A stretch of DNA of 64,000 nucleotides from Bacteroidota bacterium (GCA_018267545.1 JAFDYG010000465.1:15556-79555); one strand, 5' to 3'. Counted from the first letter of the stretch, positions 28,225-31,789 are shown. Made by a program: numbers and translations. Notes: a model not told the origin generated them from the sequence alone.

Positions 28225-28803
28225 CTACGCCCCCAGCAGCCGCACCGGGTTGATGACCGCCAGATGCCCCCCTGCCTCCCTGACCCGCGCAGCAAAGTCC
28301 GACGTTCCTCCCGGCCCATCACCGGTAGAAAGCTCGTCCCATACCAGAAGCGCATATAGACGGTCCGCAGACGAAGCTTCTTTCTTCGCAACTTCGACCA
28401 TCCAAATATTGGCCGCAGCGAAGGGCGAAAGATCATCCGGCAGCGGCGAATCACGGCCCTGGAAAAGTATTCGTATTCCTTCATGCGTTTTCAGCGCGTT
28501 AAACCTCGCCTCCCACCCGGTACCCTCGACGCGTATCGATTCTTTGATAAAAAGCTCTTCCTTCAGGGACAGACAAAGCCATACCTCTGCGCCTCTTTCA
28601 AGACAGATCTCGGCAAATAGAATATCGCTCCCCCTGGCTCCTCCACAAATCGACAAGTCTCCCAAACCGACATTCCAGGCGGCCAGCTGATGAGACATCA
28701 AGTCTCGAACAGCATCCACCTTACTTTCTGGAAAGCGGGGCTTTGGCCGGTTAGGCAAGTCGGTCATATGACCACTACAAAGGATAATCTTATCGTAAGA
28801 CAA
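28225..28803 (-). CDS. LOG/SLOG-superfamily (DprA/LOG/YpsA-like Rossmannoid) protein
   Basis: The 192-aa ORF has a TTG start. It carries two signature-like motifs in the LOG order: ICGGARGSDILFAE (compare GGGxxGxMG of LOG and GxARGID of DprA) and, later, ALLVWDE...GPGGTSDF (compare PGGxGTxxE). It lies 22 nt downstream of the NACHT gene. Confidence 0.5.
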   Translation of the reverse strand: MSYDKIILCSGHMTDLPNRPKPRFPESKVDAVRDLMSHQLAAWNVGLGDLSICGGARGSDILFAEICLERGAEVWLCLSLKEELFIKESIRVEGTGWEARFNALKTHEGIRILFQGRDSPLPDDLSPFAAANIWMVEVAKKEASSADRLYALLVWDELSTGDGPGGTSDFAARVREAGGHLAVINPVRLLGA

Positions 28804-28825
28804 TGCGGGTGTTTGAGGCCGGAAA

Positions 28826-31789
28826 TTACAATTTCTTCAGCATCTCAGCGGCTCTTTCCCGCATCCAAGGAAAGGGATCGTTTTCAGCGATTTTTTTTAG
28901 GACTTCTAAAGTTTTGGGGTGGGAAGGCCAACGCTCGAGGAGCCTCTGCATCGAGGTCTCTCGAACATAGTAGTTAGAAGCAGTTCTCATTTCTTCTGAA
29001 CTTTCCATACCGCCTTTCTGAGCTAGCTGGCACAAAAACTCCAGAAGCTCATCATTATCGGCAAAATGTTGAGTCACTAATTGAATAATTCGGACATGAT
29101 TATTATCTGGCTTCTTATCCAATAATTCCTTCTTTAAAATATCAAATACTTCCGGATCACCTTTGTAATTAGTTGCAAGCGCCATCATTCCTATAAGGTT
29201 TACAAGTGGTTCTTTATCCTTCTTCACCTGATAAATTAAAAGTTCACGCATACCTGGCTCATTTTTGTATTCACTAAAAAGAGCCTCTGTGCAAACATAA
29301 CGCATAACCACTTCCTTATCGTCCAGGGCTAATTTTTTCAGTAATGGGAATACATCTGGGTCTTCTCGCCAGCCTTGAACCAGAGCAAAAGGCACCATGG
29401 CTCTCGAAAAAAACTCCATTTCACGAAGATTCAAGAAAAGATTTTTTTTAATCTTCATCTCATTTTTTCCAACTTGTCCAATAAACTTACCAAGTAGCTT
29501 TTCAATTGAATAATATTTGACATTGGGTCTTGAAATTTTCAAAAAATCTGTAAGTACATCGACACAAGGCCATGAAGAATCTATCGTCAATATAGGCGTT
29601 ATTATATCTTCTTCAATAAATGAAAAATATCCATCATTGGGCCTGTTCGTCAAATTAAAAAGGTTGAAAACTCTTTCCAGTAGAAACTTACAAGGCTCAC
29701 GCATCATTTGCAAATTTCTTACCTCAGCAAGACATTTCAATGCCAGCGAGAGAAAGTAAGGAAATTTTCCATTTCCAGCCTGATCTTCAGACCAGGATCT
29801 TTTCGCCAAAAACAGAATAATATCCGCTGTAAAACCTTCCGCCACCACCCCCGCAATGATCCGTAGCACCTCATGCCAGGAAGGATCGTCGCAATGCTCG
29901 CCAAAAACCTCATCCCTCAGCTGCTCGAAACTTAGCTCGCGAGTCTTTTCGAATTTCTGTATAAAAGCCATCGCGCAGAAATATTCCAGGAACCCACGAT
30001 GGACAAATCCAAATAAGTTACCTCCATACAACGACAGGATAAAGTTTCGTTCCCGGAACTGCTGTATCATCGACCGGGCAATCCTCGCAGCATCCGGTAT
30101 CTTCTGGTAACGCTCCCGCAGATATTCTTCGATCTCCTCCTGCAGCCTTTCTTTATGAATATAGTTACCGGCCAGCCCTCCTTCTCCGCTTTGCATCTTG
30201 AAAGCCAGGCGGCGTAGAATTTCCTTTTTTTCCTCACCGCCTATAAAATCAGCTTCTACATGGTTAGCCTTTAGGTGACGGTTGATATCCCAATGCTCGA
30301 TTAGTACACTAGCAGCATGCTCATATAGTTTCCATCGCTCGCGAGGTAGCTCCTGATTCTTACCGATGATCGCCATGATCGTGAGCAACATCGGATTACC
30401 CGATAGTTGCCGGATGGAAGCCGCGGTCTTGAAGGCTTCCTGTATTCTTTTAACACGGGCTTGGGCTTCTTGTGGTCTGTCTGCCAGAACTATTGAATAC
30501 CATTTATAGACGAATTCATTTACTTGCTTCTCGTCAAAGTCCTGTAGTGTAAACTCCTTGAAACCCGCATTCATGAGAATCGACCGTTGGTAACCAATGA
30601 TTCGGCTCGTTACGATCACTCGGACGTCGGGATATTTTTCAGTAAAGCCTACGATCTCGCGCGTGATTGTCTCCCGATCGGCCGGGTCGAATATTTCATC
30701 CAGCCCATCGAAGAGAAGAAGGGTTGGTTTTCTTTCCGATAAATGGCGTAGCAGGGCCTTTTTATCGGGGAACGAGGACTGGGATTCGGAAAGGTGGTCG
30801 CAGAAGTCCAGGAAAGTTCTGCAATCCTGATATTTCTTCTTCAAAGCAATATAACTCCTGAGCTCGATCAGAAGAGGAAAGGCCCCGAGATAAAAGGAAT
30901 GAAGTCGGGGATTGATCGAAGCATCGATCATCGACAGGGCCATATATTTCAACAAGGTCGACTTGCCCGAACCCGGGTCTCCAAGAATGATAACGTGAGG
31001 GTTAGCAGGATCGGTCAACATTTCCAGCACTGGCGCCGCCTTTTTTCCATAATAGGTATCGCTAAGCTTCTTGATTTCCTCCTGCGAGATATGCGCCGGC
31101 AGATCGTCCGCGCATAATTCCCTTTCCAGCTGTAGCGTACTCCAAATGTCCTTTGGCAATTCGATGGGAGGCCGGTTGTCTCGAACGTGCTGTTCCACGA
31201 AGATGATCCGCAGCTGAAGCTGCAGGTGATCTTCCTTCTCCGGAGGGGTCAGCCCTTCCAAGTCTATCCGCCGGTATCGATTTGCCAAGCGCTCCATATA
31301 CTTTCCCATATCCTCGGGTGGAGGAGCATCCCCTGTAAGCATACTCAACGACGCCGAAACCTGTGCGGCCAAACTATCAGGCGTCGTAAACAACGCACAT
31401 CCATGCCTCTCGCTCAGCTCATCCCGCAAACGCTTGATGACACCCCTGTTTTCATCCACCAATTCAGGAGGCCATGGGTGCTTCCCATCCAGCAGGTAGA
31501 TAAAAATTTTCTTACCCGTCTTCCTAGCTTCCTCGTATTCCATCCGCGTAATGGAATATTTTTCCGGATTCTCCTCTTCAGGCTCCCACCCATAACGCCA
31601 GGCAAAAATCCCGATGTACACCTCGCAACTACGCACATCCTCCAAACACTTGTCCACCGGTCGCTTATCCTCGGCATTATAATATTCCATCGCCACATCC
31701 AAAAGCCCCATTTTTCGGACGGCCACGCCCGCTTTATCCCTATGTTCCTTTAGGTCATTAAAAGTCGACGATATATATACTCTTTTCAT
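28826..31789 (-). CDS. STAND NTPase: DUF4062(TIR-like)-NACHT-HEAT repeat protein
   Basis: The start is at ATG 31789 (MKRVYISSTFNDLKEHR...). NACHT Walker A is ILGDPGSGKSTLLK (~30958..30984) and Walker B is LLLFDGLDEI (~30700..30722). The AT-rich C-terminal third contains HEAT/PBS-type repeats (e.g. NDPFPWMRERAAEMLKKL). Confidence 0.85.
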   Translation of the reverse strand: MKRVYISSTFNDLKEHRDKAGVAVRKMGLLDVAMEYYNAEDKRPVDKCLEDVRSCEVYIGIFAWRYGWEPEEENPEKYSITRMEYEEARKTGKKIFIYLLDGKHPWPPELVDENRGVIKRLRDELSERHGCALFTTPDSLAAQVSASLSMLTGDAPPPEDMGKYMERLANRYRRIDLEGLTPPEKEDHLQLQLRIIFVEQHVRDNRPPIELPKDIWSTLQLERELCADDLPAHISQEEIKKLSDTYYGKKAAPVLEMLTDPANPHVIILGDPGSGKSTLLKYMALSMIDASINPRLHSFYLGAFPLLIELRSYIALKKKYQDCRTFLDFCDHLSESQSSFPDKKALLRHLSERKPTLLLFDGLDEIFDPADRETITREIVGFTEKYPDVRVIVTSRIIGYQRSILMNAGFKEFTLQDFDEKQVNEFVYKWYSIVLADRPQEAQARVKRIQEAFKTAASIRQLSGNPMLLTIMAIIGKNQELPRERWKLYEHAASVLIEHWDINRHLKANHVEADFIGGEEKKEILRRLAFKMQSGEGGLAGNYIHKERLQEEIEEYLRERYQKIPDAARIARSMIQQFRERNFILSLYGGNLFGFVHRGFLEYFCAMAFIQKFEKTRELSFEQLRDEVFGEHCDDPSWHEVLRIIAGVVAEGFTADIILFLAKRSWSEDQAGNGKFPYFLSLALKCLAEVRNLQMMREPCKFLLERVFNLFNLTNRPNDGYFSFIEEDIITPILTIDSSWPCVDVLTDFLKISRPNVKYYSIEKLLGKFIGQVGKNEMKIKKNLFLNLREMEFFSRAMVPFALVQGWREDPDVFPLLKKLALDDKEVVMRYVCTEALFSEYKNEPGMRELLIYQVKKDKEPLVNLIGMMALATNYKGDPEVFDILKKELLDKKPDNNHVRIIQLVTQHFADNDELLEFLCQLAQKGGMESSEEMRTASNYYVRETSMQRLLERWPSHPKTLEVLKKIAENDPFPWMRERAAEMLKKL

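Follow-up and report, generated by a model that had tools for sequence, protein, structure and literature searches.

A stand-alone SLOG-fold protein and a lipase-CHAT-TPR-S protein as the candidate output half of a Thoeris-like system, encoded beside a NIR-NACHT-HEAT gene

The locus analysed here lies in a stretch of 64,000 nucleotides from a Bacteroidota bacterium (GCA_018267545.1 JAFDYG010000465.1:15556-79555), referred to below as the window, with positions counted from its first letter. It comprises a gene for a 987-residue NLR-like protein, a small gene downstream of it for a 192-residue SLOG-like protein, and a divergently oriented gene for a 1775-residue protein with lipase-like, CHAT and TPR-S domains (Table 1). 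A preliminary description of this DNA, whose coordinates stop just short of the 1775-residue gene, had paired the first two genes, and reading of the open reading frames (ORFs) bore out its account of their layout: both lie on the minus strand where they had been placed, with 22 nucleotides separating the frames of 987 and 192 residues. Motif positions and Pfam also upheld the NACHT and HEAT regions and the GDPGSGKST and LLLFDGLDEI motifs of the larger protein. The N-terminal domain that had been called TIR-like is Pfam DUF4062 (residues 3-88), a TIR-like NADase according to preprints of 2026 (cited below), and the Thoeris-like producer/sensor logic that had been suggested is a reasonable frame.

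Table 1. Positions of the genes, domains and intervals of the locus in the window.
Feature	Position	Strand	Basis
Stand-alone SLOG-fold protein, 192 residues, TTG start	28225..28803	-	ORF, motifs, AlphaFold2 model, Foldseek
Spacer, 22 nucleotides, NACHT stop codon to SLOG start codon	28804..28825	-	
NIR(DUF4062)-NACHT-HEAT NLR-like protein, 987 residues	28826..31789	-	Pfam, homolog architecture, conserved motifs
C-terminal helical HEAT-repeat region, about residues 620-987	28829..29932	-	HEAT_2, E 7e-8; G+C 0.39, the minimum of the locus
NACHT NTPase module, residues 266-432	30494..30994	-	Pfam, E 3e-11; Walker A G270-T278, Walker B L357-E365
DUF4062/NIR TIR-like NADase domain, residues 3-88	31526..31783	-	Pfam, E 1e-23; putative catalytic Glu84 in SITRMEYEEA
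Divergent intergenic region, 128 bp, NACHT-SLOG operon versus CHAT-TPR-S gene	31790..31917	.	
Candidate effector, 1775 residues: two alpha/beta-hydrolase (lipase-like) modules, CHAT protease, C-terminal TPR-S	31918..37245	+	Pfam
TPR-S (sensor-type TPR) region, about residues 1504-1665 of the 1775-residue protein	36427..36912	+	Pfam, hhalign

The boundaries of the two minus-strand genes were defined as follows. The 987-residue protein is contained in a longer ORF (28826..31840) and begins at the ATG at 31789; the source gene call (P0121) also gives 987 residues, and M1 is at least 95% conserved among homologs. Its stop codon (28826-28828) is followed by the 22-nucleotide gap and then by TTG 28803, with which the small ORF opens. 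This TTG is taken as the correct start because homologs of the 192-residue protein begin where it would place the start, and because the invariant SGH motif and strand beta1 precede the first ATG of the gene. The source gene call for the small gene (P0001, 180 residues, ATG start) is too short and drops 28767-28803, and with it beta1 and SGH. A scan of 27400-32200 for promoters and terminators, using a consensus that does not cover Bacteroidota promoters, revealed nothing above shuffled expectation and no site between the NACHT and SLOG genes. With a 22-nucleotide gap free of terminator-like and promoter-like sites, the two genes are likely co-transcribed. A 183-residue ORF further downstream (27607-28158) was considered as a part of the system and set aside: it has no domain match, and in L005 and L010 its relatives lie at a distance of seven genes from SLOG, which reflects local synteny.

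For the 192-residue protein, Pfam gave no match even with E-values up to 10, nor did NCBIfam or PADLOC give any, and phmmer and profile searches of the PDB returned noise only, with no SLOG protein. None of the curated SLOG models (LOG, DprA, YpsA/DUF1273, LSDAT, STALD, TPALS, DUF2493) matches it, so the family is without an existing model. An AlphaFold2 model built on 55 sequences reached a predicted local distance difference test score (pLDDT) of 93.6 and a predicted template-modelling score (pTM) of 0.91. Comparison of this model with the PDB using Foldseek gave only SLOG-superfamily proteins at E <= 1e-3, led by YpsA (2nx2; E 3e-5, TM-score 0.58-0.61) and including DprA, the MoCo carrier protein, ShosA and the LOG-type TM1055, with TRPM2 lower down the list. 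The viral models matched in BFVD were DprA-like, 'YpsA-related SLOG' and DUF2493 proteins. The structural comparison, in which YpsA and DprA are closest, does not point to an unrelated fold, and the 192-residue protein is, on this model, a SLOG-fold member of an uncharacterised YpsA/DprA-like family. Of the original designation of the protein as LOG/SLOG-like, the SLOG fold thus stood, on the model, the Foldseek matches and the viral models, while membership of the LOG enzymes did not: the PF03641 hidden Markov model (HMM) gave no match even at E <= 10, and where LOG enzymes have the catalytic Glu of PGGxGTxxE, the present family has an invariant Phe (Phe170), next to which several members carry His instead of D169.

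With a word-indexed search, 502 relatives of the 192-residue protein were recovered, and an exhaustive profile search gave 3761 clusters (50% identity) at E <= 1e-3, 2116 of them at E <= 1e-10. Among the genomes scanned, relatives occur in 283 species and more than eight phyla, with members in Chitinophagaceae, Acidobacteriota, many Verrucomicrobiota, Actinomycetota, Cyanobacteria, Planctomycetota, Chloroflexota and Gemmatimonadota. Twenty-nine columns are invariant across the family and lie in loops after strands; they include H12, D15, R19, R23, G54, G58, D60, E65, R100, N132, D156, D162, G165 and G166. In the model, these loops hold the invariant SGH (after beta1), GGARGxD (after beta2) and GDGPGGT (after beta5) motifs, and loops after strands form the canonical ligand crevice of Rossmannoid domains. 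The motifs initially noted in the protein, ICGGARGSDILFAE at residues 52-65 and GPGGTSDF at residues 163-170, are not chance occurrences, as they fall on invariant columns of a family with more than 3700 clusters. Phage-encoded relatives, as candidates for an anti-defence role, were sought in IMG/VR and none was found; the viral structural matches are to distant SLOG families only.

To define the gene neighbourhood of the family, ORFs were called and clustered in 80 species-level SLOG loci, and HMMs were made from Pfam-verified seeds. A second set consisted of 80 metagenome SLOG loci, making 160 other loci in all; the metagenome scan with the single 192-residue protein as query gave no match, and an alignment query was used instead. 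In 42 of the 80 species-level loci, the SLOG-like domain forms the C-terminus of a TIR-like/MAP3K_TRAF_bd/TPR-S protein of about 690 residues. The N-terminal 450 residues of these fusions correspond to stand-alone MAP3K_TRAF_bd plus TPR-S proteins (Pfam 3.8e-51 and 1.9e-28), and the first domain of the MAP3K_TRAF_bd/TPR-S proteins matches a PADLOC TIR-effector model at 2.6e-7. A TPR-S-type protein is encoded within 3 kb of the SLOG domain in 56 of the species-level loci and a patatin in 54 (three of them fused), so that one or the other is found within this distance in 69. SLATT/DUF4231 proteins are present in 23 of the 80 loci, and a bona fide TIR protein (TIR-WD40, for example) is encoded no more than 3 kb away in 23, a number that rises to 34 at 10 kb. 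Independently called proteins confirm the fusions TPR-S-SLOG, SLOG-patatin, AAA_35-TIR-TPR-S-SLOG (P0316, an AAA_35-TIR_2-TPR-S-SLOG single chain of 1261 residues), TPR-S-SLOG-sigma54-type AAA+ (P0304, 1212 residues) and SLATT_1...SLOG (P0370, 1075 residues); by our own ORF translation, L024:1-3381 encodes nSTAND1-TIR-like-TPR-S-SLOG. A NACHT gene like that of the window was beside the SLOG gene in none of the 80 species-level and none of the 80 metagenome loci, and a DUF4062 domain was within 2 kb of the SLOG gene in only two metagenome loci. The real partners of the SLOG-like family are therefore TPR-S (often fused), patatin, SLATT and TIR proteins, not NACHT.

Two further arrangements were recorded in these loci. 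A DUF4231/SLATT_1 gene predicted to encode two transmembrane segments occurs at L026:10561-11019 and in 22 other loci, and in many Verrucomicrobiota it lies between the TPR-S-SLOG and patatin genes, so that one locus combines an effector of the kind seen in type VII Thoeris (SLATT) with one of the kind seen in type VIII (ThsI-like). At L046:9941-12264, a SLOG-patatin fusion (593 residues) is followed by a 179-residue ORF in which a TIR N-terminus ('DIFISYSRGD') is combined with only the C-terminal half of another SLOG-like domain; this ORF may be a recombinant or decaying gene.

The loci most similar to that of the window show which neighbours are constant and which vary. In L005, L009, L010 and L094, a CAP12/PCTIR-type TIR protein and a 242-residue membrane protein occupy the position of the NACHT gene. 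At the locus of the closest SLOG homolog (L173, 62% identity), an LRR-Roc-COR-TIR gene is followed after 10 nucleotides by the SLOG gene, and a TIR-MAP3K_TRAF_bd/TPR-S gene is convergent with the latter. The gene next after SLOG in Puia sp. P3 encodes a TPR-S protein, and split genes for LRR, Roc-COR and TIR lie upstream of SLOG; in L001 and L008 the sole TIR is a 140-residue TIR_2 gene about 5 kb upstream. Across four Chitinophagaceae layouts SLOG is constant, together with one TPR-S protein, and in three of the four a TIR-class protein (ROCO-TIR, PCTIR-TIR or NIR-NACHT) lies right beside it. In Chitinophagaceae the SLOG gene is thus the constant element, accompanied by one TPR-S and usually one variable TIR-class protein. 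The window holds a DUF4062/NIR domain instead of a canonical TIR, where sister loci hold PCTIR or TIR_2 proteins.

The TPR-S protein of the window is the 1775-residue neighbour, for which Pfam reports DUF7379 (1e-34), LCAT (1e-9), CHAT (5e-26) and TPR-S (1.1e-5). When its TPR-S region was aligned by hhalign with the TPR-S of the fused TPR-S-SLOG proteins, the match extended over 145 columns with a probability of 93% and an E-value of 3e-7. Conserved in the family are the THSRGG and AHSLGG elbows of the hydrolase modules and, in CHAT, the His of LAGHG and the Cys of NCC. Orthologs with 66% identity adjoin the SLOG gene in L005, L009, L010 and L094, and in L081, a Gemmatimonadota genome, a relative with 33% identity is separated from the SLOG gene by 4.8 kb. 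Given this recurrence, the likely functional partner of SLOG is the 1775-residue protein.

In experiments reported in three preprints, DUF4062 ('NIR') acts as a TIR-like NADase that yields ADP-ribose (ADPR) and nicotinamide, and it is the effector of Avs2, of further NLR-like proteins, and of the systems Swarozyc, Vulcan, Vesta and Evangelion (10.64898/2026.05.01.722283; 10.64898/2026.09.04.749371; 10.64898/2026.06.25.731849). In the 987-residue protein, T81 and E84 of this domain are at least 95% conserved among 80 homologs, and E84 fits the 'acidic-SYT' Glu of the NIR literature. GDPGSGKST (residues 270-278) and the LLLFDGLDE portion of LLLFDGLDEI (residues 357-366) are invariant in homologs, and more than 2951 homologs at E <= 1e-10 keep the DUF4062-NACHT-HEAT architecture. 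The HEAT region is presumed, by analogy with Avs and NLR proteins, to sense the trigger. The 987-residue protein belongs to a known kind of NLR-like immune receptor and is predicted to destroy NAD+.

Six contexts of NACHT orthologs were sampled, and in none was a SLOG-like gene beside the ortholog. The ortholog was solitary in five, four times among housekeeping genes and once beside helicase and PIN genes. Two of the orthologs (L177:6015-13024 and L179:4172-13331) lie in one housekeeping synteny, consisting of BrkB, QueA, the NLR gene, CN_hydrolase and an agmatine deiminase-like gene. Both are on metagenome-assembled contigs, that of L177 coming from a metagenome-assembled genome of Blastocatellia (Acidobacteriota), and because the synteny is shared, the NIR-NACHT-HEAT gene appears to be stably inherited and solitary there. 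In L089 (and also in L090), a NACHT ortholog with 48% identity lies 52 nucleotides downstream of a TPR-S-patatin gene (938 residues); in L089:5132-15800 it is followed by DUF4062-nSTAND1-TPR (1064 residues) and MAP3K_TRAF_bd/TPR-S (447 residues) genes, with TIR-TPR genes nearby. No SLOG-like gene was found in this run of TPR-S genes in L089/L090. From these contexts the NIR-NACHT-HEAT protein appears able to act alone, and it is sometimes embedded among TPR-S genes.

We favour the explanation, with a probability of roughly 0.5, that the SLOG protein and the 1775-residue lipase/CHAT-TPR-S protein together make up the output half of an abortive-infection system of Thoeris-like, TPR-S type. The 192-residue protein would be a free-standing copy of a SLOG-fold nucleotide-ligand module that serves TPR-S and phospholipase effectors. 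Upon infection, an NAD+-derived nucleotide of the ADPR/cyclic ADPR (cADPR) class would appear and would be bound by the SLOG protein in a crevice between the loops that follow beta1 (SGH...D..R...RFP), beta2 (GGARGxD) and beta5 (WDE..GDGPGGT). The SLOG protein would then dock onto the TPR-S domain, and docking would license the lipase modules and the CHAT protease to attack the infected cell, damaging its membrane and proteins. A ligand-binding role is preferred because the nearest structural relatives bind ligands, YpsA, DprA and TRPM2 MHR1/2 being ligand binders rather than enzymes. SLOG is preferred as the sensor because SLOG-patatin fusions and minimal SLOG plus patatin cassettes hold no other sensor domain, and physical contact between SLOG and TPR-S is suggested by their fusion. 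NIR-NACHT-HEAT would be a self-sufficient NLR-type NADase, in which HEAT senses, NACHT oligomerises and NIR cleaves NAD+. It may also supply the NAD+-cleavage product, since it fills the slot of the TIR proteins in sister loci; its participation is the least certain step.

Several observations weigh against this explanation. The G+C content at third codon positions (GC3) differs strongly among the three genes (SLOG 0.565, NIR-NACHT 0.491, CHAT-TPR-S 0.76), and given this mosaic they were probably not acquired as one unit. GC3 was also considered as a guide to which genes travelled together and was discarded as ambiguous, as all three genes differ. The Pfam match to TPR-S in the 1775-residue protein (residues 1514-1638) scores 26.3 bits, compared with a curated cut-off of 27.6. 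About eight of the 80 species-level loci are without any partner gene, several of these being short contigs, and some loci consist of SLOG plus patatin only amid housekeeping genes; TPR-S is therefore not obligatory. The invariant polar residues H12, D15, D60, E65, D156 and D162 would also suit catalysis. Finally, as described above, the NACHT orthologs are mostly solitary.

A more inclusive alternative is a single integrated cascade, in which NIR-NACHT-HEAT senses a phage protein, oligomerises and cleaves NAD+, the SLOG protein binds or converts the product (ADPR or a derivative), and the TPR-S lipase/CHAT protein is activated as a result. Integration of the NACHT gene is favoured by the 22-nucleotide gap without a terminator and by its occupation of the TIR slot. 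Consistent with a cascade are also the four Chitinophagaceae layouts with their single TPR-S protein and, in three, an adjacent TIR-class protein; the joining of STAND-type ATPase, TIR, TPR-S and SLOG in the single chains of P0316 and L024; and the L089 ortholog flanked by TPR-S-patatin, NIR-nSTAND1-TPR and MAP3K_TRAF_bd/TPR-S genes. Integration is disfavoured, however, because the pairing is unique among the loci compared, with NACHT-SLOG adjacency in none of the 160 other SLOG loci; because five of six NACHT orthologs are solitary, two of them in the conserved housekeeping synteny; and because the NACHT gene is a compositional outlier (GC3 0.49 versus 0.57 and 0.76). Moreover, characterised NIR domains are NAD+-depleting effectors, not signal generators. 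On balance, we consider the full cascade doubtful. That NIR-NACHT supplies the nucleotide, as a three-gene cascade would have it, is a tentative proposition that falls short of an even chance, while its being a mere neighbour in the island stands slightly above one. Still less probable is the general scheme in which a bacterial NLR signals through a nucleotide to a TPR-S effector, with the NIR-NACHT-HEAT product captured or remodelled by SLOG and relayed to a TPR-S-gated, lipase/caspase-like executioner.

A serious, though less probable, alternative is that the SLOG-like protein is an enzyme: an N-glycosidase that degrades an ADPR/cADPR-type signal, and so acts as an off-switch or sets a threshold, or a maker of the signal where a TIR is lacking. 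The clustering of invariant His, Asp, Glu and Arg residues, among the 29 invariant columns, in post-strand loops would fit such an activity. Cleavage of N-glycosidic bonds is the reaction of the LOG-type SLOG enzymes, and a role in degrading cADPR-type signals has been proposed for SLOG domains. About 46 of the 80 species-level loci are without a TIR within 10 kb, so another domain must make or receive the input, and a built-in clearing of the signal would go well with the many fusions to a ThsI-like TIR-like/TPR-S protein. The position of the LOG catalytic Glu is not conserved, however, and SLOG is the only candidate sensor domain of the SLOG-patatin fusions and minimal SLOG plus patatin cassettes, which favours sensing. 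YpsA, DprA and TRPM2 MHR1/2, the nearest relatives in structure, argue for ligand binding instead, and the phage contigs of IMG/VR, in which one would expect to meet enzymes that degrade such a signal, yielded no member of the family.

The dedicated two-gene system of NACHT and SLOG, independent of the TPR-S neighbour, which the preliminary description had put forward, has operon-like spacing and the nucleotide-centred immune domain classes of both proteins in its favour, but it is very improbable and largely refuted by the comparative data: no conserved pair was present in the 160 SLOG loci or the six NACHT-ortholog loci, about half of the species have the SLOG domain joined to TPR-S in one protein, and the same CHAT-TPR-S partner recurs without the NACHT gene.

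The favoured system of SLOG and lipase/CHAT-TPR-S proteins was compared with known systems, the nearest being type VIII Thoeris and the wider group of TPR-S systems. In type VIII Thoeris, canonical cADPR is the product of a TIR protein and switches on ThsI, in which a CMP-hydrolase (DRHyd) domain is joined to a TPR; a sensor role for this TPR had been predicted by Aravind's group (bioRxiv 10.64898/2025.12.03.692087). In the BcTir/Tpr preprint, which draws on Burroughs & Aravind 2020 (J Bacteriol e00365-20), YpsA-Tpr and patatin-Tpr assemblies are given among 78 Tpr-core operons. The locus in the window shares with these systems a TPR-S core protein with TIR-class proteins nearby and YpsA-like SLOG, patatin and SLATT accessories like those of that summary; many members of the SLOG family, in the 42 loci described above, are fused to the ThsI-like TIR-like/MAP3K_TRAF_bd/TPR-S protein. 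It differs in that its TPR-S ends a 1775-residue double-lipase/CHAT protein, whereas ThsI has a DRHyd hydrolase, and in that the TIR slot is held by a DUF4062-NACHT-HEAT NLR and SLOG is a separate gene. In other loci, TPR-S is as a rule preceded by a TIR-like N-terminal domain, with or without SLOG in the same chain. Most simply, the family studied here would be the 'YpsA-like SLOG' accessory of TPR-S systems, an identity with the 'YpsA' of Burroughs & Aravind that we infer from the summarised account.

Type I Thoeris, composed of ThsA (SIR2-SLOG) and ThsB (TIR), likewise places SLOG in a TIR-linked anti-phage context with the logic of a SLOG sensor and an effector, and the SLOG-patatin fusions of the present family mirror SIR2-SLOG. 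In contrast, the SLOG protein of the window has 192 residues and no extra domain, and its partner is TPR-S or patatin; no SIR2 was found in the locus of the window, nor any PADLOC match to Thoeris. YpsA (2nx2) and DprA (4ljk, 5mll, 3uqz) are the best structural matches (TM-score 0.5-0.6, probability 1.0) and share the Gly-rich loop and acidic residue (GxD) after the second strand. Identity to them is only 11-18%, however, and the SLOG-like family has its own long beta1-alpha1 loop (D..R...RFP..K) and WDE...GDGPGGT loop and sits in defence islands, not in cell division or competence contexts. The LOG phosphoribohydrolases (PF03641) have the superfamily fold and the Gly-rich motif order GGxxG ... 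PGG.T in common with it, but LOG-type structures rank below YpsA and DprA, and the Glu of PGGxGTxxE is missing in the 192-residue protein. With NIR-containing NLR-like and Avs proteins, the 987-residue protein shares an N-terminal DUF4062 with a conserved Glu, a STAND (NACHT) NTPase and C-terminal repeats, and it differs in being predicted to be co-transcribed with a SLOG gene beside a TPR-S effector. The kind of NACHT protein, and the computational association of YpsA-like SLOG and patatin with TPR-S, are thus already known; new are the unmodelled SLOG family and its scale, the layout of a stand-alone SLOG with a lipase/CHAT-TPR-S protein, and the occurrence of a NIR-type NLR in place of a TIR partner.

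ThsI is the only experimentally studied part of TPR-S/Thoeris-like immunity, and activation of the cADPR type is known only for this protein (bioRxiv 10.64898/2025.12.03.692087). Given its fusions to TPR-S and patatin, the SLOG-like family is a good candidate for the missing ligand-handling component, and the ligand of the SLOG partner could indicate what the TPR-S class senses. Eukaryotic ASK1 kinases share the TPR-S/MAP3K_TRAF_bd module, their TRAF-binding TPR being its homolog, so that a cascade from NLR via nucleotide signal to TPR-S, if real, would find an echo in eukaryotes. A NIR-type NLR in the TIR slot would be a natural experiment on NLR NADases as sources of signals besides depleters of NAD+. 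The family deserves an HMM of its own, and the TTG start was mis-called in the source data.

The surrounding region is a defence island, since a complete Septu system adjoins the 3' end of the CHAT-TPR-S gene and a HerA-like pair and a second DUF4062 operon are also present. Septu occupies 37242-40203 on the minus strand, with PtuA at 38104-40203 (PADLOC 1.7e-204) and PtuB, with HNH, at 37242-38117 (5e-75). At 40200-43482, also on the minus strand, a HerA-like ATPase (41554-43482; PADLOC HerA 1e-23) is followed by a 450-residue protein without a match, the stop and start codons overlapping; the two may constitute a HerA-partner defence pair. On the other side of the NACHT and SLOG genes, an apparent minus-strand operon (18758-25660) encodes a second DUF4062/NIR protein of 444 residues (24326-25660; Pfam 2e-19), an AAA+ ATPase of 321 residues (23356-24321) and a 1533-residue protein without a database match (18758-23359), and is a candidate for an uncharacterised NIR-containing three-gene system.

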